A stretch of 64,000 bases of DNA from Cyanidioschyzon merolae (taxonomy: Eukaryota), in NCBI GenBank assembly GCA_000091205.1, contig AP006495.2, one strand, 5' to 3'. Each line of letters begins with the position of its first letter. Positions within the stretch are counted from its first letter, which is position 1. Of this stretch, positions 1 through 61,247 are shown piece after piece. The notes below the pieces were generated by a model, which saw nothing but the letters and a program-made list of their open reading frames with translations, ran no database searches and had not been told where the DNA came from. The translations under genes and the position numbers were made by a program.

Positions 1-220
1 GGATGAAGAAATCAAAGAGGCGGATCCTGCGACGCAGGAGGTGCATGAGAAGGGCCTCGTCGTTGACGCGGCGAAGCATGAAGATGAGAAGGAGGCGGAT
101 CCTGCGACACAGGAGGTGCATGACAAGGGCCTCGTCGTTGACGCGGCGAAGCATGAAGATGAGAAGGAGGCGGATCCCGCGACACAGGAGGTGCATGGCA
201 AGGGCCTCGTCGTTGGCACG
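1..220 (+). repeat. 75-bp tandem repeat array, about 3 units, truncated by the window start. In frame it encodes a 25-aa acidic unit [25 protein letters not shown]. It is a near-identical copy of the array at 24516-24815.
   Basis: Direct reading of the sequence: unit 'gaagatgagaaggaggcggatcctgcgacacaggaggtgcatgacaagggcctcgtcgttgacgcggcgaagcat' repeats head-to-tail. The ORF track shows the same 25-aa peptide reiterated. Confidence 0.9.
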
Positions 221-1040
221 GACCCTGGGAATACGAATATCATGACCATTGCAGCACCGAAGCGTGCGGTAGATGGCATTGACGGCAACTTACGTGAGAG
301 CGACTTGCGTCTGTTGAGGTTCTCAAGAACTAGATATTCTCGAGAATCCGGTATAATGAATGCGAGGAAGAAAATTGAGACACGGAATGCAGGAATGAAG
401 GATCACCTGGAAGCTTTGAGCGAGGTGACAAGCCGATGAGCGGACTTTGAAGCTTTTCTGAAATTCATGCAAGTTCGCGTTGCTCATTGGGATGCGCTGT
501 GGAAAGAGTACACCAAGCCCCGGTGGGCTCGATTGCGAATGAATCTACACTGTGGGAAGCGGCGCGCGTTCGCGAACTTTTTCAATCGGCTGAGCGCCCT
601 GAAGGAGAATGAAAGTCAGAGGCTCATAGTAGCTTATTGGGCTGGGCGCTGGATGACCCAAAAAGGAACGACGCCAGCCCCGACGACAAGAACGTACAAG
701 GAGTGCGCACACTGTTTCGTCACGATACCTGTAGATAAGTTCCGAACATCGTATACACGCCACGAGCTGGGGTGTACACTTCAGAGCGTCGAGAAAGGAA
801 AGTGCCAGCGGAGCCCTGGTGATATACAAACGTACGGACCGCTGACCGAAGAGCAAATGGAAAGAAGGGCGAAAGTTCGAGGATTGCTCGCATTAGAAAG
901 TACAACTACGAATGGCGAGAAACGCGTAGCGTTTGTGAATTGAGACTTGAACGCCGCATGCAGTGGAAGGAAATGTGCGGTGATGGAAAGAAGCTCCCAT
1001 CGTGGACAGGAGAGAACTTTGTGGGACACCCTCTCAATGT
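41..1040 (+). pseudogene. Degenerate TnpB/Fanzor-like (OMEGA-type RuvC nuclease) ORF, copy a. It is split over two frames, ORF 41-439 and ORF 467-943, followed by an in-frame TGA at 941-943 that interrupts the RuvC-III motif.
   Basis: RuvC-I-like '[13 protein letters not shown]' at 266-304. TnpB zinc-finger-like 'PAPTTRTYKECAHCF'. 'RVAFVN*DLNAACS' at 926-965 matches the TnpB/Cas12 RuvC-III consensus D-R-D-x-N-A-A-x-N-I except for the stop. The intact version 'NRDLNAVINIRRY' is present in paralog c. Confidence 0.5.
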
Positions 1041-1190
1041 GGAACTATATGAGACAAGATTGAAAGCATTCGTACATGGCCCGCCGAGAAAGCCTCCGAG
1101 GCGTCTGCACATCAGTTGGCATCGTCTTGTCTAGGGCGGGACACTCGCCACTACTGTACCACTGGCAGCAACGTTTTTCTTTTGAAAAGC
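220..1190 (+). mobile_element. Repeat-family copy a (Fanzor/TnpB-like element remnant). It is homologous to 24816-25797; identity is near-perfect up to ~1030 and then falls to roughly 70% before ending in a conserved block 'ggcagcaacgtttttcttttgaaa'.
   Basis: Direct comparison of the two loci in the sequence. Homology stops at ~1190 / ~25797, after which the flanks are unrelated. Confidence 0.55.
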
Positions 1191-1595
1191 GTTTGCTGTC
1201 GGGGCTTCTCAAGGCCGAGCGCCCGGTCAACGTCGCGCTAGGCTGAACTCACTGACCTACGAGAGACGCCTTCCTAGTGTTCGTCTCGGTGCCTGGCGTT
1301 TGCATGGAACTTTCTCGACAGTCTATATCTGTTTCCACACTTTTACGACTGTTTACGTAGCCTTGACTGGTAGGTATCGGTAGCAGACTAAAACGCGGGT
1401 AGACTTTCGGTGACCGAATAGCCAAAGCGAGTCTGTCCTGTGCTAGGACGCTGTTGCTCGGCAGTCTCTACGCGACATAAGCGTCCCACTTGGTGGTCGT
1501 TGCTGCTGTTATTGTCGTGGTGTTGTTCTTGTTGGTGTCGGAGGTGGTAACTGGATCCGTGTCTCAGAACATTCCTGCCTCGCGGGTGCCACGAA

Positions 1596-6319: not shown

Positions 6320-7010
6320 TCAGATCAACGGAATCAAGATGATTCGCGATACCCTCGAACAAGCTTTCCTATAATAACGGGAATCATAATCCAATGTATA
6401 TGGACATGCCTCCGGTGCTCTGGTCTCCGCACTGCAGCACGCTCGAACCAAGTGCGCTTCAAGTTCTCGATCTCTCCGTTCCAAGCGACGCCAGGGCGCA
6501 GCGATTGACGCCGTCGGATGTACGAAGAAAAATGCTCCATATCGGCAGTTGAAGAATTGCTCACAAGCTTATGAAAAAATTCACTTATCATGCTGCGTCA
6601 GTGAATCGATCCCGTTCGGGAAACGATTTCCTATGCCTTTGCGGCGATCGACGAAACGTACTTCGACGCCTGCATGATACCTGTCACGGGATTTGCTCCC
6701 AAAGGCTCTCGTCTCTTCTGTTTCCATGAGAAAGCGTCTTGGACTCCGACTTGAGTCATCGCAGCGATCGCTTCTTGTGGAGCGTGCGTCACTGTTTTCC
6801 ACGAAGAAAGTGGATTCGTATCGACATTTCTCGACTTGTTCTCCAACCTTGATTCTTCTTTCGGTATCTGTTTCATCTTGGCCAACATCATGTTCCAGAA
6901 ATCATCTATCCGCTGAAAAACCATGAGCTCGTGTGTGCAGCTGACAGAGTACATGGCAAGCGGATCGCCCAAATCAGTACTGTGACCCATTGGTACGGCA
7001 CCTCGGGCAC
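6320..7010. repeat. Solo copy of the ~700-bp 'tail' segment of the dispersed repeat family. It is homologous to 13980-14650 downstream of Fanzor-like copy c.
   Basis: Shared blocks read in both places: 'caagatgattcgcga', 'cttcaRgttYtcgatctctcYgttYcaaggcgac..gcgcagcgattSRYgcc', 'gtcatcgcagcgatYgc', 'atcgcccaRaWcagtactgKtRSSS'. Confidence 0.6.
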
Positions 7011-7061
7011 GTAAGCGGAGGCGGGAATCGGGGAGTCTTCTGTGCCCGCCACGGGCATGCA

Positions 7062-7433
7062 GCGAGCGATGTGGCAAGCGCTCACACGGCATGAGGCAGC
7101 CTCCGGAGGACGTCAAGGCGGACACACAGGAAAGTTCCTGACCACACTCAAGTAGCGAGCGATGTGGCAAGAGCTCACACGGCATGAGGCAGCCTCCGGA
7201 GGACGTCAAGGCGGACACACAGGAAAGTTCCTGACCACACTCAAGTAGCGAGCGATGTGGCAAGAGCTCACACGGCATGAGGCAGCCTCCGGAGGACGTC
7301 AAGGCGGACACACAGGAAAGTTCCTGACCACACTCAAGTAGCGAGCGATGTGGCAAGCACTCACACGGCATGAGGCAGCCTCCGGAGGACGTCAAGGCGG
7401 ACACACAGGAAAGTTCCTGACCACACTCAAGTG
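7062..7433. repeat. 93-bp minisatellite, 4 tandem units.
   Basis: Unit 'gcgagcgatgtggcaagRgctcacacggcatgaggcagcctccggaggacgtcaaggcggacacacaggaaagttcctgaccacactcaagta' begins at 7062, 7155, 7248 and 7341. Units are contiguous with no spacers. Confidence 0.95.
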
Positions 7434-7898
7434 TCATCGCCGCGACAGGCGCACCGAGTGTCCATCCAAAGAAGCTTCAGTGAGCAAGCGCAACGTCGAT
7501 CGCAGCTTCCGCCTTTAGGTAAACAATGCGATAAAAAAGCAGCAGTCGGAAACAACGAGCATCGGCACGCTTTATCTGCTATGAGTGTCTATCGACAGTT
7601 GCTCATAGAGCTGGAGCCCCAGAAGAGACCGACGTTCCTAAAAGTTGGAGATAAGACGCGGGAAACCGTAGCAGTCGAAAAAAAGTTTCGCATACGCAGG
7701 TATTGAGGATAGCAAGAAGATGCCGCAAACACGAGGGCGTGCGTTCGGGTCCGAGGAACCCCCCCCCCCCGGTTCCAAGCCACGGCGCTGTGGATGTTCC
7801 AGGACGCTGCGCGTTGCGAGTCCGCTCTGCGAGCGCGCATTTTCCGTGTCCCAAGTATACAAATTCATATAGTTCTGTCCTGACATGTACTACACGGA

Positions 7899-12345: not shown

Positions 12346-12599
12346 CCGCTAGTTGCAGCTGTAGCAGCAGCGAATTCTGCAAGAAAAACAGCCTGCTGCG
12401 ACTTGTCGACGCGACGTACAGAGCCGGGCGTGTGGCTAGGGTCTCTCAAGTCGATGGGGTTCCATCCAGGTGCGGTGCATTGCAGCCGATCGACATCACC
12501 ATGCAATGTATTCTCTAGATGGTAGACGAATTGCCTGTAAGATATGTATGCTTTTCTGAATAGTGCACGGAGCACTGCATTTCTCTTTCAGGTCAGACG

Positions 12600-14650
12600 T
12601 AACGCTGTTCTGAGATGGACGAGGAACACCGAACGGAAAAAGGAGATACGTTCAGCGTCAAAAAAGGCGCTCTTGAAGTGAGCTTGCGGTCCATGGTAGA
12701 AAACGACCCAATGAGCAGTTTAGCGAAAGAAAAAGCGACGGTCGTAGCCGCCACGGGCGTCTCTGGCTCTCATCAGCTTGCTCGTATGGTTCCGAACACA
12801 CTCGGATAAAGTCGCAAGAAAGAGTCCGGGTTCACGCACGGCCATCTTGCATCGGAGTCGCAGCTATGACAAACAGTTCCTGGAACGTCGCGACGTGTAT
12901 GGAACACAGCGACATCGGTTTGTCTTTTTCAGTCGATGGGGCTTGCTCCGGACGAAACAGTCAGCGCTTGTTTGGGTATTCGCATAGCGGGGGCCCGTTA
13001 TACGTACGACCGATCTCGAAGAGAACGAGGATATCATTATCAGTTCTGGTTGTAGTGAATACAAGTTGCGGCCTTCGTTTCGCAAGTGGAGGACGCACAC
13101 ACACACACACATACACACATCAATGACTCCGTCAGCGCACTGAAGACCGTGTCCTGACGTCTGGCAACGTCCGTCTATTGGAGAACGTCGAATTTCGCCA
13201 TTCTCCCTACGTTCATGCTTTTGCCGATGCTGTCGGGATAGATCTGCATATCATTTCGCCGCAGGCTCCGTGGTTCAACCCCATCGAATCAGTATTTTTT
13301 ATGGTGAAACGGAATGATCGCTCCACTGGGCGAATAGCGGAAGCGTTCAGCACACGGTGACACACCCGGGCGCACGTCGTCTTTCTTGTGCAAGTCCTTC
13401 TCCAACCGGAAAGGTCGTCACCTAACGACATATACACGTGTATTCCATTTGAAGAAAGGAATATCCAAGGGAAAGGTATGGACGTGCGCGTCGAGGATCC
13501 TGGTGTGCCGTCATCACCAGGTAGAACAACAACCGAAAAACGAAGAAAATCCTCTTCTCGTCGATCATTGAGAGAGCGACGAAGAGCAGCTTACGACGAA
13601 GAAGAGGATGACCAGGAGAGATTGACGACAACAAACGTTTGCTCGACGTAACGATGACGAGACTGTAGTGGCAAAGCGAGCACGAGTTCGAGGACTCGCA
13701 GCAAAAGTGACTTTAGCCATCGTCAATGCACCCAGGGCGTTCGTGAACCGAGACTTGAACGCCGTCATCAATATCAGAAGATATGTGGTACTGAAGACGA
13801 AACCCGCGGAGCTGGCTTGATGTTATTTTATGGGGCAGCATCTCAGGCTCGAATTGTGCCTGGATGAATACTAGAACCGATAGAAGGCAGCCGGTCAAAA
13901 AATAGGCCGGGCGGCGTCTGCGAGTGAGTTTGTATTCACGCTCCATGGTCGTGAATCATTTCTCGTTCCACTGGCTTGTTGTTTTGAAGAATCAAGATGA
14001 TTCGCGACGCCCGCCAAAAAGGTGTATAACGTACCCCAAGTCACGAGCCAACGCTTACGCACGAGCCTCTACGCCTATCCATTCCATACATATGCAGTGG
14101 CCCAGTGATACATGCTTCAGGTTTTCGATCTCTCTGTTTCAAGGCGACTCGTGTGCGCAGCGATTCGTGCCACTGGTCTGAAGAGGAAACATAAAACGCG
14201 ATGCTTCCTTTTGACGACTCGTCCACAGGCAAATGCGGAACGGTCGCTGAACTTGTCAGGCCACGAAGCCGCTTCCGTGCGAAAGACCAATCCTGCTTTC
14301 GTTTCGAGCATAGGCGAAACGGCGCTTGACAACACCATGATAGCTCGCACAGCATAGACCGTGCGACGCCCTCATCTCTTCTGACTGCATGAAACTGGGA
14401 CTTCGACTCGGGCTTTCGTCATCGCAGCGATTGCGCCCAGTAGGGGAAGCGTAGAGAATTCGAGTTTGTTTGACTTTGTCTAGAGCCCGGATTTTCCTTT
14501 CGATCCTTGTTTCAGTATGAATGGGACTGCGCTCCACAAATCCATGATCCATTGGAACAGCATTCGCCTGCGTTTGCAGCGTACATCGTACTCGCTCATG
14601 GAATCGCCCAGAACACGCCAGTACTGGTAGGGTGCGGCATCGAGCGCGAA
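12600..14650 (+). mobile_element. Repeat-family copy c: decayed Fanzor/TnpB-like element with ~400 bp of degenerate N-terminal region, RuvC-I and RuvC-III motifs, plus a ~700-bp tail.
   Basis: The upstream region (12870-13180) is homologous to 35090-35400 of copy d ('ctgacgtctggcRacgtcc..ctattgga', 'cgRtttgtYtttYYcagtcgatgRg'). The tail is homologous to 6320-7010. Confidence 0.5.
13178..13790 (+). pseudogene. Fanzor/TnpB-like RuvC nuclease remnant, copy c. The RuvC-III motif is intact.
   Basis: 'FADAVGIDLHIISPQAPWFNPIESVFFMVKRNDRSTGRIAEA' (RuvC-I 'GIDL' at 13230-13250). '...RARVRGLAAKVTLAIVNAPRAFVNRDLNAVINIRRYVVLKTKP' at 13660-13800, where 'RDLNAVINI' is the D-x-NAA-x-NI RuvC-III motif. The two segments are in different frames and stop-interrupted. 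Confidence 0.55.
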
Positions 14651-19918: not shown

Positions 19919-21543
19919 CTATCAGTGGTCCAAAAGTCTTGTGCCAGAATATTCACTTTCAGAGGCGGTGAACGGCGCGCTTCTACAATCTCCAGGCTAT
20001 CGATGTGTCGAAGCCCTGTTGGTATGAATGCGAACAGGTCCACGAACTCGGGCGTTCACCGCCATGCTTCGGTCTGTTTCCGACATCAAGAACACCAGCG
20101 TTTGTGTGCTTTATCGGAGACTGGTTCGTGTTCGTCTCCCTTATCAACGGTTTTTACGTGGGTCGGTATCTGATACGCCTGCACTTCAGCGGTCAGCAGT
20201 CGAGGGATGGTGATGGTAGCGTTCCAATCCCGATGACGCTATTTCCAGCTGTTCTCTATGCATTGATCGCATAGGCAAGACGTAGCGGTCAGCGTCTCGC
20301 TTGCCGTGTGCATGTTTTTCAGTGCAGTGCATCGTTGTGTGCCTCACTGCGTTGACACTTGGGTGCTGTCGGGTGTTCCCAGATATTCATTGTGTCGCCG
20401 GCCCCGCGTTGTGCCGCCTTCGCGCAAAACGATGACGCACGCTCGACTAGAACAAGTGATAACACCGATGATGACTCAAGTCTGAGTGCAAGACTGTATC
20501 CGTTGCCAGACGAAGAGTCGAGCGCCTCGGAGTATTCATCACGTGATCGGTATGACGCTGCTGTTGGCGAATGCCGTTTCACCAGTAAACGCAAAGCGCG
20601 AAGTATTTTTCCTTCGAACGCCGGCGATTATTTGCAGCACAAATGTAAGTCAATGACGAGCATGTGCTTGTGATCGTGGCGCCAAATGACGATGTCAAGT
20701 AGATTCACTCGTGCATCCAGCTGAGCTTTTCTGGGTGCACTCACGGTCTGCCTTGGAAAAGAGCACTCGAAGACCCGAAGGATGCAAGCGACGGATAAGC
20801 GTGTAGGCTTGTAGGGAGCTGTTGGACTCGTGATATCGGTTAGTTTACAATCCCGCTTTTCTGAGGTTGCTGCACCTCATCTGAATTCCACTGCCTTCTA
20901 GCGTTCCAGCGGCTGATCATCCAAGCGCCGACTCCGAACGTACGACCGAGCCTCCTAGATCCGCTTTTGCATCCGCACTCCCATATGGATTTGCGTGGAA
21001 TGTCGAGTCTGTATATCTAAAACACCATCCGCAGAAAAAAAGAGAAGAGTCGCCGGACACGAAGAAAGCAAGCAGCGCAGAGTTTTAGCTTCACCTGAAA
21101 TGGGTATCGTGTACCGACGCGAGAGCGGTGCGTCCCGGGTACATCGGCTCAGGGGTATCGCATGCGGCACCGAATGTGTCCAGTACAGCGTACACCGAAG
21201 CGGTGATCGTTTCGTAAACGGAGTTGCCAAGCTCGCCAATATCCATGCAAACCCGCTATAATGAAGCGCTCGCGATATGCATACCACCACCCGAGGCAAC
21301 CAACGATAATGTGGACGCGCGTAGCAGGCTATCGCAACCTGCCGCAGAGCGACAGGGCATCTCGCGTCCCTTACAGCTGCTCATCGTGCTTGCGTTGCAT
21401 CCTGAATCGTTCAGACCGGCAATAACATTGTGGTGGCAGCGTTCAGGCCAACGCGTCACTGCCCCCAGCGCCCTAGTCCACGGCATCCAGCGATTCGCAT
21501 GGTCGAATGATGCGAACATCGAGGCGATGGTTGCAGACGCGCT

Positions 21544-22875: not shown

Positions 22876-23490
22876 GGACGTCGACTAGCGACCGAGGCAC
22901 ACAGACTCCCGGTACAACGCTAGCTCCAGATAATGTATGCCAGATTGCCTTATTGTAATTGACGTCGTCGTCGGTAGCGTTGTGGCTGCTGAAGCCATTT
23001 CTTCGATGAGAAGACGTTTGTATGGATCATGGATTCTAGATTGTGGGGTGGATATTGAAATCAATGCCAGTGCTCAATATGATTCGCTCTTACGCCAAGT
23101 TTCATGGTCTGTTCTCGGATATACTGGTAATTTCGTATGTTCTATCGTGCGCTGAGTACCTGCATTGCTGCATCCGCAATAGAGCCAATGCTGCTAGTGC
23201 GGATGCTGAATGGAGACAGAACGGTTTTGCCATATCCATGGGGGTATCGGATCGAGGAATGCTTCATTGAATACGGAATCGGGATTCGTCAACATTCTGG
23301 AAGCCTGGGAGATGTGCAGTTAGACCTACTGCCTGCAGCAGCGCGAAGCGATATACTAGGAGTGATCAACGACCAGGGTGATGCCCAGTCGCAGCATACC
23401 CGCTCCTAGTCCCAGAATAAAGCGCATTGCGAACGAGTTGCTCAGATCTAACCAAAGTACCTGTCACTGGGGCGGACATGAAGCGCAAGC

Positions 23491-24221
23491 TTGGGAACCT
23501 GTCTTCTTAAACATATCAAGGATCCGTACAGGGAAAAGTTGCGAGAGGCCATTAGGAACCGTGTCGACTCGTACTCCAAGAGTATTCTCAAGGCGTCGTC
23601 AGGACGGATGCATTTGGCGAGGGAGATGTATCGCGATGTGGCGCACATGGAAACGGTCGAGATTCCGGGCGAGTTCGTCAACAAGACGTTTTTTCGATAC
23701 CTGAAGCATGGTACAGCGGGAAGCGCGGAGGGAAAATGAGCGGAATCACGCCCTCCACGAAAAATACCCTTTACAGCATCAACGGTACTCGATACAAGGG
23801 TGACTGGGATATCTACGCATACGGGGCGATGAAGTGCGTCACGAACCTGAAGAATCATTTGACAATGAACGTCGAACGTTTCATGATACGCGCCGTGTTT
23901 GCACTTTACCCGGGCCAGTCTCGCAAAGGGATACGGGCGATTCTCAACGGCATAAGGAACGATCGCAAGCATGAACATGAGATCGAATTCGTCGACGAGA
24001 AGGCGTCAAACCAGAGCACGAATGAGGTCTTTGTCATCCGTGCGGTTATACAAGAGCACCGTGCGGCGCTGGCGCTGGTGAATCCAGCAGAAAAGATATC
24101 ACAGTTGAAAAAAGATAAGGAAAGATCCTATCGCCTTGTCCTGCGCTATTTTCTGTTTCTGGACCGAGAGCTCGAACGCAAGGTGGAAATGAAGAGTGAG
24201 AGAGATGGAAGTCTATCCTAA
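23491..24221 (+). other. Two consecutive ORFs in different frames (82 aa + 161 aa) immediately upstream of repeat copy b. They are of unknown function and may be part of the same element or an unrelated decayed gene.
   Basis: ORF track only ('...LVLRYFLFLDRELERKVEMKSERDGSLS'). Similarity to the region upstream of copy c is weak and unconvincing. Confidence 0.2.
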
Positions 24222-24433
24222 TGGGTAAGCGCTTCAACGTCGTTCCAATGCGCAACATCAAGTCACATTTTGTGAGTATCGACTCTGGCGTCTTTTGCAG
24301 CATCATGAGCGAGATCAGTCCTGAGTTCGATGTTAGCAGAGAGGACTTCACTGGCGAAAACCATGAGACGCACTGAAAGAATATCTTCGATTTCAAAAGT
24401 CTCAAAGTCAGAAAGCGAAATGTATCCACGGGG

Positions 24434-25640
24434 ATGATCGAAACCGATGGAGTAGCTTTGTGTGTACACTATCGGCGGTTGAAGATAAATCGTCCAGTTC
24501 CGCCCTCGGCCGCGCCCGTCACGAAGGATGAAGAAATCAAAGAGGCGGATCCTGCGACGCAGGAGGTGCATGACAAGGGCCTCGTCGTTGACGCGGTGAA
24601 GCATGAAGATGAGAAGGAGGCGGATCCTGCGACACAGGAGGTGCATGACAAGGGCCTCGTCGTTGACGCGGCGAAGCATGAAGATGAGAAGGAGGCGGAT
24701 CCCGCGACACAGGAGGTGCATGACAAGGGCCTCGTCGTTGACGCGGCGAAGCATGAAGATGAGAAGGAGGCGGATCCCGCGACGCAGGAGGTGCATGACA
24801 AGGGCCTCGTCGTTGGCACGGACCCTGAGAATACGAATATCATGACCATCGCAGCACCGAAGCGTGCGGTAGATGGCATTGACGGCAACTTACGTGAGAG
24901 CGACTTGCGTCTGTTGAGGTTCTCAAGAACTAGATATTCTCGAGAATCCGGTATAATGACTGCGAGGAAGAAAATTGAGACACGGAATGCAGGAATGAAG
25001 GATCACCTGGAAGCTTTGAGCGCGCTGACGACCCGATGAGCGGACTTTCAAGCTTTTATGAAATTCATGCAAGTTCGCGTTGCTCATTGGGATGCGCTGT
25101 GGAAAGAGTACACCAAGCCCCGGTGGGCTCGATTGCGAATGAATCTACACTGTGGGAAGCGGCGCGCGTTCGCGAACTTTTTCAATCGGCTGAGCGCCCT
25201 GAAGGGGAATGAAAGTCAGAGGCTCATAGTAGCTTATTGGGCTGGGCGCTGGATGACCCAAAAAGGAACGACGCCAGCCCCGACGACAAGAACGTACAAG
25301 GAGTGCGCACACTGTTTCGTCACGATACCTGTAGATAAGTTCCGAACATGGTATACACGCCACGAGCTGGGGTGTACACTTCAGAGAGTCGAGAAAGAAA
25401 AGTGCCAGCGGAGCCCTGGTGATATACAAACGTACGGAGCGCTGACGGAAGAGCAAATGGAAAGAAGGGCGAAAGTTCGAGGATTGCTCGCATTAGAAAG
25501 TACAACTACGAATGGCGAGAAACGCGTAGCGTTTGTGCATTGAGACTTGAACGCCGCATGCAGTGGAAGGATATGTGCGGTGATGGAAAGAAGCTCCCAT
25601 AGTGGACAGGAGAGAACTTTGTGGGACAATCACTAAAAGT
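24434..25640 (+). pseudogene. Degenerate TnpB/Fanzor-like ORF, copy b. ORF 24434-25039 and ORF 25058-25543 are followed by an in-frame TGA at 25541-25543 inside the RuvC-III motif ('VH*DLNAACS').
   Basis: Same motifs as copy a: '[13 protein letters not shown]' at 24866-24904, 'TRTYKECAHCF', 'RVAFVH*DLNAA'. Confidence 0.5.
24516..24815 (+). repeat. 75-bp tandem repeat array, about 4 units. It is coding-frame compatible and forms the N-terminal part of ORF 24434-25039.
   Basis: Same unit as 1-220. The ORF shows '[19 protein letters not shown][A/V]KHEDE' four times. Confidence 0.9.
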
Positions 25641-25797
25641 TGAACTATATGAGAAAACCATGGAAGCAGGAGTAGATGGCCGCTCCAAAAAGACGTGACA
25701 GAGTTTGCACCTCAGTCAGAGACTTCTTGTCTAGAGCGTATTTCTCGCCACTACTGCGTACTGCTGCCGGCAGCAACGTTTTTCTTTTGAAAGACGT
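24816..25797 (+). mobile_element. Repeat-family copy b body and 3' tail.
   Basis: Homology to 220-1190; the conserved terminal block is 'ggcagcaacgtttttcttttgaaa' at ~25772-25795. Confidence 0.55.
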
Positions 25798-26028
25798 TCG
25801 GTGTTTAGAAATCGCCGGCGCTGGCTCATCGGCTCTCTCCTGTGTCGTCTATTGACGCAAAGATTTGTGTTTTTTGTGCTTCCTAGCTTCGACGCTGAAG
25901 CGTTTGCGGCGTGCTCAGTGAACTTTGTACTCTGTTCACTGATCGGTAATCCGGGACGCGTTATACGACGCGCGCACTTAGCATTTATTGGCTACTTTTC
26001 GAGCTCAATCTTCCAAGCCTAAGTTTCA

Positions 26029-28953
26029 ATGGCACCTGCTCGTGGAGATTCAGAGGCGGCTCCAAGCGCAGACGCACCGACAACGCCCGCTTGCTGGCCC
26101 AGTTCTCGTGTGCGTCAAACATTCATCGATTATTTCATCGACAGGGGACACACTTTCGTAGAGTCGTCACCAGTGGTGCCTTTCGACGACCCGACACTGC
26201 TCTTCACCAACGCTGGTATGAACCAGTTCAAGCCCCTGTTCCTGGGTCGGGTGGATCCGACCTCACCCCTATTCGGCCTGAAACGCGCGTGTAACACCCA
26301 AAAGTGCGTGCGTGCCGGTGGGAAGCACAACGACCTGGACGATGTCGGCCGGGACACCTATCATCACACCTTTTTCGAGATGCTCGGCAACTGGTCGTTC
26401 GGCGACTACTTCAACGCCGAGGCGATCAACTGGGCATGGGACCTACTGACCCGCGTCTACGGACTCGATCCGGACCAGCTCTACGCAACCTACTTTGGTG
26501 GAGACGCTGCGAACCAGTTGCCCGCCGACCTTGATACTCGTGACCAGTGGCTGCGCTACCTGCCACCAGAGCGAGTGCTTCCATTCGGAACCAAGGATAA
26601 TTTTTGGGAAATGGGCGAGACTGGACCCTGTGGTCCCTGTACGGAAATTCACTATGACCGCGTTCGGGGTCGACCCGCGCACCAAGCTGCTGCCCTAGTC
26701 AATGCCGGTCACGAGTCGCTGATCGAGATCTGGAACCTCGTGCTGATCCAGTTCAACCGGGAACCAGACGGACAGTTGCGTCGGTTGCCTGCGCGTCACG
26801 TCGACACCGGCATGGGACTGGAACGTCTCTGCGCAATTCTGCAGGGAAAATCCTCAAACTACGACACCGATATGTTTGCGCCTCTGTTTGCAGCGATTCA
26901 GCGAGAGTCTGGATCGAGTGAAGCGTACGCTGGTCGGCTGGGTGCCACCGACTCTGCACTCACCGACACTGCCTATCGAGTTGTTGCCGATCACATACGC
27001 ACCCTGACGTTTGGCATCGCCGATGGGGCGGTACCCTCGAACGAAGGTCGAGGCTACGTTCTGCGCCGTATCCTGCGCCGCGCTGTGCGCTACGGGCAGC
27101 AGTTTCTGAACGCACCCCGCGGTTTTCTACACCGGCTCGTTCCGGACGTCGCACGGCTCTATCAAACGACGTTCCCTGAGGTGGCTGCAAAGGCTGACTA
27201 CATCGCTGGTGTCATTCAAGAGGAGGAGATGGCATTCAGTATGACGTTGAAACGCGGGTTGGATCGTTTCCACGAGACTGCACGGGCGCTCGTCGCGGCG
27301 GGTGAGCGCGTCTTTCCTGGCAAAGAGGCCTTCTTTCTGTATGACTCGATGGGCTTTCCGCTGGATTTGACCCAAATTCTGGCGAGGGAACGGGGCCTTG
27401 AAGTTGACGTCGAGGCATACGAGTCCGAAATGGCTCGTCAACGCGCGCAGTCGAGTGCTGCTCATCGGAAACGGCTCGGAGCGGCAGAAGCGCTCGTGCT
27501 CGGACCAGAGCCGCTTGCTGTCCTCTCTGAGCAATGGAAGATTTCACCAACAGACGACTCGCACAAGTATCAGTGGTACGAACCGCTCGAATGTACCGTA
27601 TTGGCGATCTACGCTGGCTCCGAGGGATTTTTGCCGGCTGCAGAGACCGGTGACGACGCCTGTGTTGGCGTCATTCTGGATCGAACGCCCTTCTACGCAG
27701 AGGCTGGCGGCCAGGTCGCAGACACCGGCCGTCTGGATGAGCGGTTTCACGTAATCAACGTGCAATCTTTTGGCGGCTATGTCGTCCATATCGGCTACGG
27801 TCGCATCGCAGTCGGTGAGCGAGTGATCGCGCACGTGGACTACGAACGACGGGCGCTGGTGGCGCCGAACCACACCGCTACGCACATCCTGAACTGGGCA
27901 ATATGGCAAGTCCTTGGCCAGCAGTGTGACCAGAAAGGTTCGTTGGTTGATGAACAAAAGCTCCGTTTTGACTTTGCGTACGGCCGTGGGCTCACCGCTG
28001 CCGAGTTAGAGCGCATCGAGCAGTGCTGTCGTGAAGTGATCGCTCGCAATTTCGTGGTCTACACACAGCAGGTCTCTCTGACAACCGCGAAGCAGATACG
28101 ATCGTTGCGCGCGGTATTCGGTGAGACCTACCCCAGTGAGGTTCGTGTCGTATGCATCGGAGCACCGGTGGAGAAAGTGCTTGCGGCTCCTGTGCAATCC
28201 GACTGGGACCAGTATTCGATTGAGTTGTGCGGGGGCACCCATTTACAGCGCACCGGGGAAGCGCACGCCTTCTGTCTCGTGGAAGAGGGCGCGATTGCGA
28301 AAGGCATCCGACGCGTGGTGGCCCGTACCGGGGCCTCAGCGCTCGAGTGCATGGCACTCGCGCGAGGTCTTGCCAGTCGCCTTCCGCCGGTGCCTGTAGG
28401 GTCCGCGGCTGAGAATGGTGCAAGCGGCGCTTCTGTGGATGCTTCCATGCCGCCCGTTGATCTGCTGACGACCTTGGCCGAGTCGCTCAAGGCGATCACC
28501 ATATCGGCGTCGGAGAAGGAGCGCCTTCGACAACGTCTGGACTATTGGGAGCGGATGGCTCGGAAGCAAGCGAAGCAGGTAGCCGCGGCACGCGAGCAGG
28601 CTCTCGTGGATGAGCTCGTACGGCTCGTGAACAATCCGCAGCAGGACGCAGGTTCACCAGTACGGCAGGTTCCCGTTGTTGTGGCTGCGCTTCCTATTGA
28701 CGGTGATCGCCGGATCCTGCAGGGCATGCTTCAGAGCGCCCTCAAACGTCTAGGCAGCGGGGTATGGGCGCTTCTGATTGCATCGCCGGAGCGCAACGAC
28801 GAATGCCTTGTTGGATGTGTCGCCGCGTACGAGGCGCAGCGCGCTGGTCTTGACTGTAGCCGATGGTTGACCGAAACCCTGGCCCCTTGGCATGGACGCG
28901 GTGGTGGCAAACCGGACGCAGCACGCGGCTCCTGTCGATTGCTTTCACCAATC

Positions 28954-28994
<41 letters not shown>

Positions 28995-29214
28995 CGCTGA
29001 TAGGACAGCGTCGATTCGAGAGGGGGATCCTGAACGAAACATCTATTATCTGGACAAAGCACTCATAGCTTTACATGATAGTATATTAACAGACAAAAAG
29101 GAAATTGCAGGGCTTCGACCGCTGCTGGAGCGAGCGGCACGCCTAGCGAATGCCGCGCTAGCGTCTTCCTTCGTTTCGACATCGACGTCGACGAGATCGG
29201 GGTCTGCTGCATAG
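26029..29214 (+). CDS. alaS: Alanyl-tRNA synthetase (class II), 1061 aa, with a polyglutamine insertion near the C-terminus.
   Basis: N-terminus 'SSRVRQTFIDYFIDRGHTFVESSPVVP'. Motifs 'FTNAGMNQFKP', 'NDLDDVGRDTYHHTFFEML'. Editing-domain 'HTATHILNWAI'. Q12 is encoded by (CAG)12 at 28957-28992. Confidence 0.95.
28957..28992 (+). repeat. (CAG)12 coding microsatellite producing Q12 inside alanyl-tRNA synthetase.
   Basis: Read directly from the sequence; the ORF shows 'EQQQQQQQQQQQQD'. Confidence 0.95.
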
Positions 29215-34733: not shown

Positions 34734-35029
34734 ATGCGCAAGGTGATGTCGATTCGTGTCAAACGCTGCGTCCTACGGCAGGGCGCGTGCCGCGCTGTTG
34801 GGCGGGCGATGGCGTTGCTGTGCAAAGGAATTCCTTTACGGCACAAGGGAAACGTGGATGCTGGCGCAGCGCCGTACCCTCGAGTCCGCTTCTTTGATTT
34901 CAACTCAATTTCGTTGCACCCTCGCTGTGGTGTACTAGCAGGCGATCGACCTCAGGATGCAATATACCGGATGGAATGTGGATGAGTTGCCTGTAGGATA
35001 GATTCTTTACTGAAGTGTGCATCGAGGAC

Positions 35030-35930
35030 TGCTTTCATTAATCAGGTCAGACATACCACAGTAATCAGACTTCTACCGAAATGGCAACTCCGGAATTCCG
35101 CGAACGTCGCTATCCAGATAAAGCACATGAACGTCGGTTTGTTTTCCCAGTCGATGAGACTTGCTTCGGACGAAGCGCTCGGAGCGTATATGGGTATGTC
35201 GGAAAGGATGCCCGTTGCACGTCCGAATGAACTCGAAGAGAACGATAGCATGATATATTCTGGGTGCAGGGGATTCATTTTGCGGCCTCAGGTTCGCTGG
35301 TAGTGGAGGCCCATGCAACAGCACCAATCACTTTGTCAAATCATTGCAGACTGGTGCCTGACGTCTGGCGACGTCCCCCTATTGGACGATGTGGTATTTG
35401 ACAATTCCGTTTGCGTTCGAGCTTTTGTGAATTTTATAGATGTCGAGCTGCTTCTCATTCCACAGTAGGTTCCGTGGTTCATCCCCATCGAAGGAGCGTT
35501 TCCTAATCGCCAAACGTAATGATCGCAAAACTGGGCGAATCGCTGAAGCGTCCCCCACACGTTTTTACTCCGAGGGCGCATTTCGTGTTTCTTCCACAAG
35601 TCCTCCTCGCTCCGGGATGGTGTGTACCTAAGAGTAGCAAGAAACGTGTTCATTTTTGAAGAAATACAATACCGAAGGAATGATCTGGGCTGTCCACTGT
35701 AGAAGGTCGAGATGGACCGAGGGCAGCGCATGGCTTCGGCGACAGAAAAATACGGAGCGATGACAGAGCACAAACTGGCATCAAGGTCTCGAGTTCGAGG
35801 ACTCGTTGCATTGGTGAGTCCCACCAGACGCAATAAACGCATGAAATTCATGACCCAACGCTTCAACGCTGCCATCAATACGACGAGATGTGTGGTACCG
35901 AAAAAGAGACCCACGGAGCTGAGGTGATCC
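35030..35930 (+). mobile_element. Repeat-family copy d: decayed Fanzor/TnpB-like element fragment between the SNF2 and starch-synthase genes.
   Basis: '...RFLIAKRNDRKTGRIAEASPTR' parallels 'VFFMVKRNDRSTGRIAEAFSTR' in copy c. ORF 35712-35927 'SRSRVRGLVALVSPTRRNKRMKFMTQRFNAAINTTRCVVPKK' carries a degenerate RuvC-III 'NAAIN' motif at 35861-35890. Upstream DNA is homologous to copy c. Confidence 0.45.
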
Positions 35931-36695
35931 AACTGAGTGGGAGCAGCTCTTCACCGATAGAATCGGCGAAGAGCTTCAACGCAACAGTAAGCGTAAATTA
36001 CCATGCAATCCAATGGAAGGACGTTGCCAGAAGCCGGAAAAAGTCTTCGATCATTCGACGAAATAGATCCTGTTGTATGAGCCTTATCTACGGGCCAGTA
36101 CTGAGGCCGCCAAATGAATCCACTGCAGCTAGATCAGAGGACGAAGAATACCTCGTTCCGATCGAGATCGATCGTCGATACAACGGGCGCCCTGCTCCTC
36201 GAATACCCATCTACAGTCCAACTATTTCGTCCGAGGCAAGCCGCACCAACTGAAGAAGAAAACCAACGTCCCTACACTGTGCACGGATCGCAACTTTCCA
36301 GTAAAGATGTCGTTGCTGTTTCGATGGAAATGGCCGTGATAGAACTAGAGTATTTTTCCGGACCGTATCCCAGTGTTCCCAGGATCACACGAACAAGCAG
36401 TAGAGCAGCAGAGACGCCCCCAGCTGCTACCAGGATCGCTTCTGCTTTCCCGAAACTATTCAACCGTGAACTTTTCTACCATTGATTTGAACCACGCTCT
36501 GACAAAACCAGCTTTTGAAGCGGTAAGCATCCAGCTCCTTCTTTCAGTATTCCTCATCCATCTGAGTACTACGGTACACCTGACGACCCCACGAAGGAAT
36601 GCAGTCCTCCTGGCACGATTCCGGAGAGCATCCATCCTACCGGCGATTTGTCTATAATCCAGAATCCGCATGACATAAGTGATGTCAATCGCCTG

Positions 36696-36728
<33 letters not shown>

Positions 36729-42266: not shown

Positions 42267-44243
42267 GGTGTCACGCTTAACGCTAGCGGAAACGCGGCAA
42301 GTTGGAGGTTTCGTTCGGGAGGCTTTTTGCCTGCGGGATACGTGCATTGCGCATGCTAGAAACAGGGTCTTGAGGGCGCGAGAGCGCGCTGCACTGTAGA
42401 CGCGTTTGCGCTCCCAGGTCGTGGCTTCGAAGGCGTGCATGGCCCCCTGCGGGCGACTTTACGCATGGACCAGTGCTGGTGACGGTGGTGATGGTTGCGT
42501 GCAGGCAGCCGCTCTGGAGAGTGTCCCCAATGCGTAGCTAGGGCAGCGGTTTTCGTCGATATCTTGAACTGCATCCCGCTGGTGTCGCTGCTGCTGGTAA
42601 TGCGCTCGGGGACGACACGCGAGGTCATGTCGCGTGCCTCCTCGGCAGCGGTTGGTGCAGTCTCTACGCGCGCTGTTCCCGCTCCCGAATGACCTCGTCT
42701 AACGACAATGGCTCTGGTGCCTGAGCCCTGCCTCGACGCCGCAGCATCAATGACGCAACGCAGCGGGGCGTTGTTGGTATTGCGCTGCACGCGGTTGCAG
42801 CTTGACGGCAGCGATCGCTTTTCGACTCAGCGTATCATGTTGTAAACGCATGCAGGAGTGGAGGTAGAGCGCAAGCGACAAACGCAGCGCATCGAGAGAT
42901 GTATGGCATCGGTACTTGGCAGGTCGGGTACACCATAGAACGAGCAGCGTGGAACGGGGCTGTTGAACTCGGGCGTGTCCAGGAAATTTTGGATGTCTTT
43001 TACACTGTCGTGAACAGCATCCGAGGTGTGCTGGTGCTCTCCGACTGCTTCGTTTTCCTTTTTGTTACGAACGGCTTCGTATTCGCCCATCTGTTCATTC
43101 CCCTGCGAACTCCGTTACCAAAAGTCGAAGGGTAATGATGGACGCGCAAGTGCCGAAGTCGCTGCTTCCGCGTCATGTTCATGATGATGCATTTTAGGCA
43201 TAGGCGGTCGTTGCGATGGACAACGTTGTTTGTGTACAGCCTGGGTTCGCGGTTCAAAGCGTTGATCCTTGGCTTGCGTCACATGTGCCGATAAGTGCTC
43301 ATCGAATCTCATTCGTACGCTGTCAAGTGACCTACGAACGCCTGGTTCATCGCTCAGTACGTCCTGTTGACGCATCCAGAAGGCTGCCGTCGATGCACGT
43401 CTCCGATTCCGCGTCTAGTGCGGCATCCCAGGATCACAGGCCTGCTCTAGGAGATGCTGTCTGCTGTACGCGCAAGTATACGCTTCCCATTCGATAGAGG
43501 ATTTGTGGAATGCGAACTTGTCCACCACCGCGAAACATGTACTGGGAGTAGAATCCAGTCTGCAGATCAGGTCGTGAAATATCGGTCGTTTTCCGCTCCC
43601 TCGTTACCAAACGTAGATGCACGCGCAGCGGGCATTCACGACTTTGATGACTCAAGTCCGATTCCAGGACTTTTTTTGCTTGCAAACGGAAGAGAAGGGA
43701 CCCTCTGGGCTCGTATCCCATGAGACGGTTCTTGCTTCCGTGGAATGCCGTTTTGTCAATGTCAACAAAGAGGGGCGATTCCGTCTTTCGTACGCAATCG
43801 ATGATTCACCATGACATGTCCGGGAAACGCTTGCGATGGACCTGTGCAATAGGCGACAAGTGATGATGTCGATTATTTTTTCGCGTCTGTCCTTGAAGCT
43901 ACGTACCCATCCGTCAGCGCTTATTACTCCGCTTCGATCCTTGATACAGAAACTCGATGAAAAAAATCGATACGCAAAGAAAAACAGTGATCCATTCAGT
44001 GTCCCATATTTTATTCGACCGCACCTGAACGTACCGATTCACATCGATGAAGACGCTAGTACTAGCTGCCGTAGCAGCCTCCCATCGCTCGAAGAGCACC
44101 GACGCTGCGCAACTGGAACTCGACCCAGCGACCTGTTGCGTTCGGTACACGAGTTCGACGCGCCACCAGACACGGCAAGCGTCATCTATCACAGGACGGC
44201 GTTCGCACGTTGTCGCATATGCAACGCTGCCCCGATAACCGTC

Positions 44244-47832: not shown

Positions 47833-50800
47833 GCACCTCCAATGCCCGTGGCAAACCTATTCAAATGCTTCATACTTGCTCGTTGACGTCAGCCGTAGCT
47901 CGCGGAGAAGCGCCACACCGAACAGATGCGTTTGTCGTGACATGCGCGGCATGTATTCGATACATGGGCAGTGCAGGGAATACCCGCTGGAGGAGGCTAG
48001 GGCGCTCGTTTACAGCGAGGAAATTCGCCATATGCATCGGACGGCTCTGTTCCGGGAAACGTAGTAGTTGCGCATGATGCGAGGAAGGCAGGCTTCCTGT
48101 CCCAAGCATCCCGGCTAGATGACCGCTGTCGGGCCGATGCTGAGAGCAGCACGTTGCCCTTGAAGGATGGCAGGGAGCTCTGGCTCGCGTTGCGACATAT
48201 CCGCAGAACTCGCAACCAACTCGAGCTCTTCTGCCTCCATCCGGCTCATCAGTTGCTTCCACTAGCACCAGGAGGATCCGTTCCATCCGTCATTATCGAT
48301 CTGGGCCAGTAAGGTGACTATACAACGCCCACAAGCTGTGCTTCTTGAAGTGCTCGACACGAACCCGCATGTGAATTTGGCTGTTGCGATTAGTTCGACG
48401 CTTTCTGAGACCAGCGCTGTAGATGCTCTGGTCGCCCCAGTCCAGCTGCGACGTGTCCAGGTACTCTCCGAAGCGCGTTGTGAACTCACTGATCCTACAA
48501 CCAGACCCTATGTCATATTCTCTATCCGGTGTATCGGAGTTGTTGTCGCACGAAGGTTTGATCCATCAATTCCTGATGAATGTTGATAGCTGGCAGCCCT
48601 GCGTCCCGGACTCGTATGAACAGCTGCTCGTCGAGGTACGGCAAGTCGGGTAATACTAGGTGAGCATTCCCAAAGCCAGAAGATAAGCGAAGTTGAATGG
48701 CGTCACGGATAGTTTTTGGATATGAAGCATATGCGCATCTGTCGAATGAATGCTTGTACATAAAAATTCCATTGGACATTGCAGAAGACGTCATGGACGG
48801 GATGGGTCCAAATCCCGGGGCCTCACACGAAAAGCAGCACAACGCCGATACCCGCTACGTGCTCTTTGGCAGCATATTTGTGACGAGGAGCGACATTGTC
48901 TCGGAGGCAGACCAGGGAATGCAGGAAGCCGAAGCCGCTAGTTGCGTTGACGATGCATGAGGTGTTTCATGATCCTTTCCGTATGGAGCATTGTTACCGA
49001 CTGCATGATTGCGTCTCCACTAGGGGTGAAGTTGTTGTGAGGATCGCTTCTCGCTTCGCTACGAGCAGTAGGCTGCCGCTCTGTAAGCACCCATGGACAG
49101 GTCGATCACTCCTCCCGAGTAGCGGTTCATAGCGCGAGACGAGCACCTGTTCCTCATGGGATGCGCAATCCTCTTTCAGGGCGAACCCGATAAAGTCTTG
49201 TCTAAAAAAGAATGGGACGGTCTCCCGTAGACAGGCGCGATTTTTTCGTTGCCCATCCGTGCCGCTTCATCCCCGTTCATATGCACCGTGCGAAAAACGT
49301 CACATACTGTGGTATCTCATGGAGTATCGCCCAGAGAGCATTCGGATTGCAACGGAATAACAAGAAAACAGCCTAGTAGATGGTGTCGGATTGGTTCTTT
49401 TCGGGTGCACGACGCTCGGAATGAAGGATACGAGAACGATCGGTCATCCAAGTGCTGAATTTTGAACGAGCGACCTGGACAAGCGAGGTGTTCTCTTCGC
49501 AGGCGAGCGGCGACAGCATTACGTATTTGCACAGCGCCTTCGTCAATGAAGAGAGGACATACCTTCTGCCAGATACCTGAGAAAAAAATCAAACATAAGC
49601 AAAAGAGCTTCCCATTAAAGATAGGCGGGAATGCGCTTCGATCTCTGCGGTTCGACCGGTCGATGCTTCATCTTCAAAATTACGAGATAAAAGAGCACAG
49701 CTAAGGTAGGCATAGGCCTGCAGCACCTAAGGGAGCGAAATGTTTCGCCTCTATAGAGTCTATATAGATATCTACCGACGCACAGGCGCATCCTAGTCGT
49801 TTTTGACCGGCACCTGTTATCGGTGTCAGTTGCTCTCCCAGCACACTTCGAGACCGAGAGGCTGCCGCATAGAGTTGTATCGCGTCAGCCCCTCGGGTCT
49901 CGTCTTCAACAACGCACATCGTCTGATCTGGATAGCAGCACTGAAGTCTCGGCTCACGGAAACCATGCGTTTAGTTGCCTCTGTTTGAACTCACAAGTGC
50001 CAGGCGTCCTCGAACGAGCGCCCTCTGTGTCACCACAGTCTCGTAATCATCCCGTCAGGCAAACACGTTTTCTCGTCTATCTCCAATCGACATCTTCTTC
50101 TTCTTCGTTGCTTGCTCTTCTGCGCCTGATTGTCGCCGAGAAGGAGATCTTCCACGTTCTTTCCTGGCAGCCGGCGAAACGGGGCCTCCAGGATCCGCCA
50201 CGCTCACTTCCATCACTTTATTTTGTTTTGAATATGAACCCGATGTCGAACGCGTCTGCCTTGAACCGCGAAGCATGACTTGAATACACGAGTGTGAAGG
50301 CTGAAGCACAGCCGACTTGCCGGACGATACGTTGCAATGACTTTAACGCAAATACAGCTCGGACGTCAGAGGAACCCGCTCATCATCATCGTGATCGCGT
50401 TTCTCCTCAACGGCGAGATACGCATCGCATCCCATGCCTGCCAGATTTGGAGGTGCGCGTATCGACCCCGCTATATAGAAAAAAGAACACAAACGAACAT
50501 CTAACTAGCAACGAGATAACGATTTCTTTCCACCGCTACGATCAAAGTCAAACAGAGGAAACGTTTTCCGTATTGTCGAAAGTTTACCTTCCAGACGAAA
50601 GGTCCCGCAAGCCGGACGAGTCGATCGGGCTCTCGCGCCATATTCCTCCGTAGGGGCGGGTGCTGTAATGAGACCTGAGCAACTCGTCGGCAACGCAGTT
50701 TATTCTGGGACTCGGAGCGGGTAGCCTGCGTCTGCGCGTCGCCCTGGTCGCAGTGGACTCCTAGCAGCTCGCTTCCCGCTGTCGCAGGCAGTGGATCTGT

Positions 50801-51243
50801 CAGCACATCTTCCATGCTTCCAGAATGCTGATGAATCTCGATTCCGTATTCACTGAATCATGCCGCAAGCGGACGCCCTCAGTAGTATCCCAAAGCGGCG
50901 CTGTCTCTGTGCTCCATCCGCACCATCTGTAGCGGTGCTATTGCGGGTGCTTACCGCGGGTACTAGATGCTCGACAGAACGTACGAAACTACAAGTACGT
51001 ACAGCAGAATGCATACGTAATGGGACTTGAAGAAAGGATCCAGCATCATGGACGTTTTGTCGATTACCAATACCCATCCCACAGTCGGGGATCCGCGGTC
51101 CATCGAGACGTACTGCCGAATCGCACCAATCAGCGCAATGATCTCCTTGACGCCCGGTATTCGAGCTCCTTCTCTACGATCAGGAAACGTACGCTTGCAG
51201 CGCTGCGTTGCGGTAGGCAGTAGAAGCACGGAGCTCGTTACAA

Positions 51244-57300: not shown

Positions 57301-57953
57301 GCATTCGATCTTTCCCAATGCCGCAGACGTCGGCTTCGACGTACGGCAAGGTATTTTTTTGGCGGGCACTGAACGAGGTAGTTGCATATGGTTCATATCT
57401 ATAAATAACTGTACATATGCATCCCCTGGCGCGAAAATCTCTTTCTCGCCTTCTTCCCCCAGGAATACATGCCCGTCACCAGCCGCTGGTTACCAAGATC
57501 AGCGCCGTTCGATCACCCCCAAGTACCGAGAACCATAGAGTTTAGCCCAGGATCCATGACAAGTTCAAACACAGTCTCTGACTCTTTCATACCTACCAGG
57601 CATCTTTCTTGAGTCCCTCTACCATGATATCATTTCCAAATATCTAAAGGACCAAATACGTCCATAAGCACCATCCCATCATTTCTATGCATCTCAGAAA
57701 TCAAGCACCAGTACGTGAACGTACGATCCGATGAGCATTTTCGCGCCTTCTTTCAAACGTGTTGGCGCCTCCCGCGCATCCATCCTGCAGAGCGCTGCGG
57801 CGCCTCGCGCGAAAGCCAACTGCCCTGGCGCCAATCGACGGACGCAGACCGCCGCTGGCGCTGTGCAAGAGCTCTCGAGCAACAACAAGGTACGCGCTTG
57901 AACATTGTCGAAGTGGACTTCCCAGCAGAGAGAGCCGAAGATTTGAACCAGCA

Positions 57954-60389: not shown

Positions 60390-60639
60390 GCTGTTACCGA
60401 TGATCGACTCTAAACCGTCTCAAATTATCCCATGATCGACTAGGTATGTACCAGAGCGTCTTGACGAATACCTCTTGTCGTGTTGAGGCACTGATCAACG
60501 AGCTTTCTCGTGCCTGCTGAGCTGCAGGTGCAGCGGCACTGGATTATCCACTGGGCGTGTCGTGCGTACCGTGTGTGTCGAGTCTGGTGGCGGCAACACG
60601 TGCGCTGCGTACGTCTTGCCGCGGAAGTGACGAAATGCC

Positions 60640-61175: not shown

Positions 61176-61247
61176 AACAATGCCGTCTCACACCCGAAAT
61201 CAATTCCGACCGCCTGGCTGCAGCTTGGCCTCGGACCGGGTCAGGAG

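Follow-up and report, generated by a model that had tools for sequence, protein, structure and literature searches.

The window analyzed here, a 64,000-nt stretch of DNA from Cyanidioschyzon merolae (contig AP006495.2), harbors copies of CMe-1A, the one Fanzor1 (eukaryotic TnpB-like) family described from this organism (Bao and Jurka, 2013, Mob DNA 4:12; PMC3627910). CMe-1A is an old, high-copy, non-autonomous transposon family with no transposase associated. Its ~150 copies each share ~80% identity with a consensus of 3169 bp, the encoded protein has 734 aa, and both TIRs and a recognisable target-site duplication are lacking (PMC3627910). The CMe-1A sequence in Additional file 2 of that paper served as the reference consensus for blastn and global alignment. 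Copy 2 aligned over 2560 nt, at 83.9% identity, from consensus position 1 (window position 23004) to consensus position 3169 (window position 25796), and copy 1, which is cut at the window start, matched consensus positions 2117–3169 at 84%. With 84% nucleotide identity over the 3169-bp consensus and both termini present, the element bearing the array is, judged by its sequence, the already described CMe-1A family. DNA conservation was also seen to run on past the stop as far as the end of the element. The third copy, at 49856–51111, has lost the array region by deletion. The earlier note had proposed a comparison with two paralogs (c and d) lacking the array; the array is indeed absent from them, but the comparison is uninformative, since the sequences at 13685–13930, 35680–35922 and 49856–51111 lost the whole region by deletion or truncation. 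An alanyl-tRNA synthetase encoded at 26029–29214, on the 3′ side of copy 2, shares 74% identity with its Cyanidiococcus yangmingshanensis counterpart and 60% with the Cyanidium caldarium enzyme, which marks the host as a Cyanidioschyzon-type (cyanidiophycean) red alga. The features of the window are listed in Table 1.

Table 1. Features of the CMe-1A copies in the window (coordinates refer to the 64,000-nt stretch).
Feature	Position	Strand	Basis or remark
CMe-1A copy 2, both consensus termini	23004..25796	+	blastn and global alignment to consensus, 83.9%
CMe-1A copy 1, 3′ part, cut at window start	1..1191	+	84% to consensus, 93% to copy 2
CMe-1A third copy, internally deleted (consensus 11–964 joined to 2840–3011)	49856..51111	-	consensus match
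Tandem array of copy 2, four 75-bp units in the phase [A/T]K(H/D)...(D/G)(A/T)	24521..24820	+	TRF and consensus alignment
Tandem array of copy 1, three units	1..220	+	TRF and self-alignment
IETDGVA strand (Fanzor1 'TTDG' motif), closing the WED-type region upstream of the linker; preceded by the internal Met at 24434	24437..24457	+	
True RuvC-I, G-T-D-P-E-N-T-N, catalytic Asp at 24821–24823	24815..24838	+	consensus and homolog alignment
RuvC-II, degraded, VDKFRT vs consensus VDEFRT	25331..25348	+	catalytic Glu is Lys in both copies
RuvC-III, degraded, (stop)DLNAAC vs consensus RDFNAAI	25541..25561	+	TGA replaces the Arg codon in both copies (941–943 in copy 1)
In-frame TGA of copy 2 (Trp in consensus)	24374..24376	+	consensus alignment
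In-frame TGA ending ORF 24434–25039 (Gly in consensus, ...TSRGADF...); copy 1 equivalent at 434–436	25037..25039	+	

Joining of the reading frames gave a conceptual protein of ~715 aa for the window nuclease. BLASTP of this repaired protein against the published CMe-1 protein showed two collinear blocks (71% identity over 374 aa and 73% over 309 aa), which are separated solely by the extra repeat units. A search of 5.8 billion proteins identified 45 relatives of the conceptual protein; 43 of them were 52–79% identical to the query, all but one of these 43 (42) being from JGI metagenomes, and the other two were distant, with 34% and 28% identity. The contig of the best relative contains eukaryotic neighbours, including a GRAM/VASt protein. 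The only precomputed label for the protein was DUF8286, which is weak, and a Pfam scan of the homolog P0001 and of the repaired window protein returned no family.

The array is located ~370–470 residues into the conceptual protein, between the IETDGVA strand and RuvC-I. RuvC-I adjoins the array directly, and the last unit provides the strand before the catalytic Asp. In copy 2, RuvC-I has Glu in place of Gly; copy 1 has kept GTDPGNTN (215–238), the homologs read VVGADPGNTN, and an h-G-x-D-P-G motif is found at the same place in other Fanzor1 proteins. RuvC-II is followed by a further change of TS to TW in copy 2 (VDKFRTW), as compared with VDKFRTS in copy 1 and VDEFRTS in the consensus and homologs. 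The RuvC-III Asp is retained in the window copies, the homologs reading NRDFNAAINI. The Fanzor/TnpB superfamily motif has been formulated as D-X(125,275)-[TS][TS]-X-X-[C4 Zn finger]-X(5,50)-RD (PMC3627910). The window copies possess the RuvC-I Asp of this superfamily but lack the RuvC-II Glu/[TS][TS] feature and the terminal RD. Since the RuvC-II feature lost in the window is kept in the consensus and homologs, the window copies are decayed members of the superfamily. The zinc-finger region of the family reads ..TSYTHHELGCTLQRVEMEKCQRS.. and has no CxxC pairs; its arrangement is HH..C...C and not a clear C4.

The order of landmarks is the same as that of SpuFz1 and Fanzor1 in general, i.e., REC/WED, '..TTDG..', a variable linker, h-G-x-D-P-G, ..DEF/YRTS.. 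and ..RD.NA..N (PDB 8GKH; Saito et al., 2023, PMC10432273). SpuFz1 (8GKH) was the sole PDB chain matched by the CMe-1 family profile, weakly (E 8.9) and collinearly around the TTDG strand; phmmer of P0001 against PDB gave no match. Alignment with the Fanzor1 MDe-1 by hhalign (E 6e-4, probability 28%, 83 columns) covered the WED-type segment alone, which was weakly aligned. Family-specific insertions and flexible loops have been described for Fanzors. In the other Fanzors compared, the linker at this site consists of 30–100 aa of unique or low-complexity sequence, and none of them has a tandem repeat. AlphaFold2 modeling of P0001 from a shallow alignment of 45 sequences was poor (mean pLDDT 40.3), and in this same model the linker (residues 368–478) appeared as coil with pLDDT ~25. 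The linker is probably disordered, with which the model is compatible without being probative.

Tandem Repeats Finder (TRF) identified a 75-bp period at 24542–24815 (3.7 copies, 97% matches, zero indels, score 513) and a second array of the same 75-bp unit at 17–215 (2.7 copies). When phased on the published consensus, in which the unit corresponds to nt 2121–2195 and is present once, copy 2 contained exactly four 25-codon units at 24521–24820. This is the same 300 bp that the earlier note had given as 24516–24815, in a phase starting 5 nt earlier, and its array is thereby borne out. Global alignment of copy 2 with the one-unit consensus placed an excess of exactly 225 nt (three extra units) at 24520–24744. 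The array is translated in frame as 25-aa repeats by ORF 24434–25039, in agreement with the earlier claim of a 25-codon unit lying in frame with that ORF. Each unit comprises 8 acidic (D/E) and 3 basic (K) residues, with a net charge of ~-5. The units stand head to tail, exceed the 10-bp lower bound on unit length of a coding minisatellite and are identical far above chance by TRF; they also vary in number as whole units, as in a VNTR, with 3 vs 4 in the window and 1–7 in related loci. The published CMe-1A consensus, with its one unit, differs from the window copies, which carry three and four units, are pseudogenes and in one case have a 580-nt 5′ deletion.

Self-comparison of the window showed 93% identity between 1–1199 and 24603–25804. 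The earlier note had counted about three units remaining at the first locus before truncation at the window start, against four at the second. The difference is real and not an effect of truncation, since window position 1 pairs with 24526, upstream of the start of the TRF array, and the window edge removes no more than two codons from the beginning of unit 1 in copy 1. The last unit of copy 1 resembles a hybrid of units 3 and 4 of copy 2, which points to slippage or unequal exchange as the probable source of the one-unit difference between the copies. The SNP patterns of the two window arrays are distinct. These arrays are also the most homogeneous of all loci, with a within-locus divergence of 0.05–0.08 (minimum 0.027), and the derived 'HDKGL' is common to every unit of both. 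The unusual likeness of the window units and the presence of 'HDKGL' in all of them suggest that the array was re-expanded or homogenised recently in this lineage.

The two copies in the window are both dead pseudogenes. Copy 2 has lost ~580 nt (consensus 474–1074), including the ATG at consensus position 906, and carries frameshifts at ~23717, ~23767, ~24187 and ~25588 together with in-frame TGAs at 24374, 25037 and 25541. Copy 1 shares two of these TGAs (the equivalents of 25037 and 25541) as well as the -1 frameshift and the E→K change. Owing to the shared stops, frameshift and catalytic E→K change, the array is translated here into nothing functional. The 3′ flanks of copies 1 and 2 diverge right after the consensus end; with lesions in common but differing 3′ flanks, the copies are separate insertions from a master that was defective already, in line with a non-autonomous family. 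Substitutions in the window copies show an ordinary spectrum (Ts/Tv 1.2–1.3), with no RIP-like or strong CpG-decay bias.

Other accounts of the lesions were considered. A segmental duplication as the origin of copies 1 and 2 was rejected, at least for the 3′ side, on the divergence of the flanks after the consensus end. A variant genetic code with TGA as a sense codon was rejected as the TGAs are accompanied by missense changes of catalytic residues (in both copies for RuvC-II) and, in copy 2, by frameshifts and a 5′ deletion; moreover, the three TGA sites correspond to Trp, Gly and Arg in the consensus, so that no single reassignment fits. An intron spanning the stop at 25037 was also rejected, since the interval in copy 2 contains no GT and the protein homology runs through uninterrupted.

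The number of units across the family was evaluated in JGI metagenome contigs, which yielded 413 relatives; 80 of these loci were examined, and 58 loci had both flanking motifs. The distance from TDGV to DPGNTN fell into classes of 57+25n aa, or of 53+25n aa where a 4-aa upstream deletion was present, and the resulting unit numbers (Table 2) come from metagenomic loci that are partly redundant assemblies of one element (49 unique linkers among 62 entries). In most loci the mean unit divergence was the same within as between loci (0.219 vs 0.218), and the nearest relative of a unit was a unit in another locus for 109 of the 119, usually one of the same index. As units are closest to same-index units elsewhere, the multi-unit array appears to be old and positionally orthologous across copies. 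The longest open frames (L001 and L003) extend over 778–819 codons and contain four units and all three catalytic motifs, with the canonical start out of frame. None of the loci examined combined an intact consensus ATG with a multi-unit array in one copy. L073 has a 655-codon open frame with a single unit.

Table 2. Unit number in loci with both flanking motifs.
Units	Loci by linker length	Loci, regular lengths only
1	5	5
2	12	12
~3	14	12
~4	14	13
~5	8	7
6	3	3
~7	2	excluded

Selection on the units was compared with that on the flanking codons (Table 3). The units showed pN/pS values of 0.90–1.01, with codon-bootstrap intervals that include 1, and the downstream codons of the same loci showed 0.25; these values come from ungapped, 3′-anchored units of transposon copies that, once inserted, are subject to neutral decay as well, for which the flanks of the same copies control in part. 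A third-position excess was seen over 100 downstream codons, and none was seen in the units. Purifying selection acted on the nuclease domain at a time when the gene already bore the array, and the array sequence itself is essentially unconstrained. With the nearest relative lying in another locus for 109 of 119 units, the array-bearing genes can be taken to have diversified under selection on the nuclease. Some unit columns are well conserved (Q14, V16 and V23) and the acidic composition is kept; weak selection on unit composition or on a short strand is conceivable.

Table 3. pN/pS of units and flanking codons.
Codons compared	pN/pS	Bootstrap interval	Remark
All pairs among 124 unique units	0.90		flat diversity across codon positions, 0.233/0.189/0.230
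Non-last units	0.91	0.64–1.26	
Last unit	1.01	0.64–1.73	
50 codons downstream, same loci	0.25	0.18–0.35	
22 codons upstream	0.50		
Downstream codons where a locus has ≥3 units	0.23		
Downstream codons where a locus has ≥4 units	0.21		

Coding minisatellites or VNTRs in protein linkers and transposable elements are composed of head-to-tail units with a length that is a multiple of three, and they vary by whole units; local homogenisation and neutral amino acid evolution in a compositionally biased segment are likewise typical of them. The array is very likely a neutrally drifting coding minisatellite (VNTR) of this kind in an unconstrained linker of the CMe-1A Fanzor1 gene, found here in two dead copies. 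A difference from typical coding VNTRs is that each internal unit carries a 'decoy' ..DNDLVVDA.. strand, i.e., a copy of the strand that precedes the RuvC catalytic residue. Of the two origins offered by the earlier note, a minisatellite expanded inside the coding region was essentially right, as the array is in frame and its copy number differs between loci. The acquisition of a repetitive acidic domain does not hold, as the unit duplicates the element's own linker, which occurs once in the CMe-1 consensus.

The proposed course of events would begin with a tandem duplication, long ago in the family, of a 75-bp piece (consensus 2121–2195) comprising the acidic linker and the strand leading into the RuvC-I Asp. 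Microhomology at the 75-nt offset in the one-unit consensus is merely 2+2 nt and gives no clue to this first duplication. Whole units would since have been gained and lost, presumably through replication slippage or unequal exchange. A unit of 25 codons keeps the frame at every change in copy number, and 1–7 units would be tolerated because the amino acid sequence of the linker is under essentially no selection. In the window, with its two insertions from a defective master, the recent re-expansion or homogenisation would have been followed by a one-unit change between the copies.

A different interpretation would be that the repeat is a functional acidic module, i.e., a tunable, disordered spacer or a nucleic-acid mimic maintained by selection between the WED and RuvC parts of an active Fanzor1, in which the number of units modulates activity, guide-RNA loading or localisation. 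The net charge of each unit, the occurrence of 3–5 units in the longest open frames, and the old, orthologous arrays in genes in which the RuvC codons show pN/pS of 0.21–0.23 (loci with at least 3–4 units) are in its favor. However, a selected module is difficult to reconcile with units that evolve at a pN/pS of ~0.9–1.0 with no third-position excess, with the occurrence of all numbers from 1 to 7, including a single unit in the published consensus and in the 655-codon frame of L073, and with the death of both window copies; hence, this interpretation is considered improbable. At the RNA level, the fold of the array was no better than that of shuffled sequence (z 0.20), and a comparison of the window with Rfam yielded no match.

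The earlier note had treated ORF 24434–25039 as a nuclease ORF with the array as its N-terminus and 'AVDGIDGNL' as RuvC-I. The ORF does belong to a TnpB/Fanzor-type RuvC nuclease gene, it is ATG-initiated, and its 201 codons are in frame with the array, as would be expected of a live gene starting at 24434 with the repeat as an N-terminal domain. However, its ATG is an internal Met of the 734-aa consensus protein, which places the array in the middle of the protein, and three-frame translation showed that coding homology reaches, in other frames, ~940 nt farther upstream than 24434 and that it also runs on past the TGA at 25037. The true RuvC-I is the GxDPGNTN-type motif, GTDPENTN in copy 2; AVDGIDGNL is situated beyond it, on the downstream side, and nothing equivalent is present in distant relatives. 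With the catalytic Glu and the RD mutated as well, there is no live ORF in either pseudogene copy, and a live nuclease of this form is scarcely credible.

The preferred reading, a coding VNTR of the CMe-1A gene, is in agreement with the confinement of the array to this gene family. By blastn of the unit, each of the related loci (503 kb in all) had a single array region and the 64-kb window had two sites, with nothing outside the CMe-1A gene in either. When the 100-aa array was searched by phmmer in a library of 1.84 billion representative proteins, 26 matches reached E<=0.001, 17 of which were inspected. Fourteen of these, at 55–96% identity, were all family members, 12 with flanking Fanzor motifs such as VVGADPGNTN and 2 as 48-aa array-only fragments. 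The remaining three (P0177, P0183 and P0184), of low identity, were unrelated repeat proteins, so that their similarity is compositional. The search for an array independent of the element, which the earlier note had suggested, therefore found none in the related loci, in the rest of the window or among the high-identity protein matches inspected. For an independent non-coding satellite or assembly artefact falling within the ORF by chance, one might cite the several reading frames that stay open through the array on either strand, a frequent property of simple repeats. Such an origin is extremely unlikely given that the unit is a piece of the element's own linker, that it occurs with diverged units at the same site in 81 loci from several metagenomes and nowhere else in the 503 kb and the 64-kb window, that all high-identity matches in the 1.84-billion-protein library are of the same family, and that the two window copies carry distinct SNPs. 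One of the two 48-aa array-only fragments bears the HDKGLVV signature of the window.

The phrase 'tandem repeat' is absent from the main text of PMC3627910, and repeats within Fanzor proteins did not appear as a topic in the titles and abstracts of the ten best-ranked among 20 papers mentioning Fanzor together with tandem repeats. As far as could be found, the array has apparently not been described before, though it is a common kind of feature. The one-unit published CMe-1A consensus under-represents the repeat-bearing majority of copies. For annotation, the present assignment keeps a decayed transposon fragment from being named a novel repeat-bearing nuclease.

Judged from the sequences compared, the segment upstream of the RuvC-I Asp took 25–150 extra residues in lineages in which the nuclease domain was under purifying selection, which hints at an insertion-permissive site. 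It is a long shot that the junction before the RuvC-I Asp in CMe-1-type Fanzor1 proteins is a permissive insertion site at which active nucleases carry up to ~150 extra acidic residues, with the repeat number acting as a tunable spacer or an autoinhibitory mimic; if true, a natural domain-insertion site would already be mapped for the engineering of Fanzor/TnpB/Cas12-type editors. The unit count, together with the SNPs of the units, may serve as a marker of CMe-1A subfamilies.

Among the examined members of CMe-1A, the Fanzor1 transposon family of C. merolae, the most intact were found on metagenome contigs. The loci L001 and L003 each retained 778-819 open codons with all three RuvC motifs and four diverged units of the 25-codon repeat that precedes RuvC-I. 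Both are candidates for tests of a Fanzor1 carrying the array. In neither is the consensus ATG in frame, the earliest in-frame methionine being that of ..YDEMVVK...

Beyond the Fanzor1 stop codon, the DNA was observed to remain conserved among CMe-1A copies up to the 3' end of the element. The terminal sequence ...GCAGCGTTTTTCTTTTGAAAGGCG is retained in both array-bearing copies of the window, and the database "proteins" P0005 and P0006 read across this conserved end. The scaffold of a Fanzor guide RNA (ωRNA/fRNA) would be predicted to lie in this stretch.

Features of the window and of related metagenome loci
Feature	Position	Strand	Remarks
Most intact CMe-1A members seen	L001 6001-8259; L003 3001-5256		JGI metagenome contigs
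CMe-1A conserved 3' end	25544-25796; 944-1191		consensus 3111-3169
Third CMe-1A copy, large internal deletion	49856-51111	-	consensus 11-964 joined to 2840-3011
Highly degenerate Fanzor1 C-terminal-region remnants	13685-13930; 35680-35922		67-72% to consensus 2737-3093
Short dispersed repeat, ~67-115 nt	6705-6771; 14368-14434; 55077-55143; also 43646-43760; 20418-20527		66-76% identity
93-bp (31-codon) tandem array	7061-7432		4.0 copies, 98% identity
96-bp tandem array	60635-61176		5.7 copies, 96% identity; alternative score 190-bp period x 2.8
Alanyl-tRNA synthetase gene	26029-29214		single uninterrupted ORF, 1061 aa

The third, internally deleted CMe-1A copy matched 23122-23449 as an inverted repeat (74%). 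CMe-1A has a portion in common with a separate element, TE-N2_CMe (Bao and Jurka, 2013; PMC3627910), and this shared portion falls inside the 5' 964 nt of the third copy. Both C-terminal-region remnants are enclosed by a longer dispersed repeat pair (12482-13814 and 34938-36696; 66-71% alike, order partly inverted), which may represent an older or different Fanzor-bearing element. The short dispersed repeat, located at several intergenic sites, possibly represents a small non-autonomous element; alternatively, these sites may have a regulatory or terminator region in common.

Two other tandem arrays were present in the window. The 93-bp array has a single open frame, on the minus strand, within ORF 6631-7437 (-, 268 aa), and may be another coding repeat. 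The 96-bp array is a non-coding minisatellite, as all six of its frames are interrupted by stop codons and it lies between ORFs 57759-60389 and 61248-62078.

The alanyl-tRNA synthetase carries near its C-terminus a poly-Gln tract encoded by (CAG)12 at 28955-28992. The closest protein in the database, at 99% identity, measures 1056 aa as against 1061 aa in the window, which points to possible length differences between strains in this tract or in a segment close to it.
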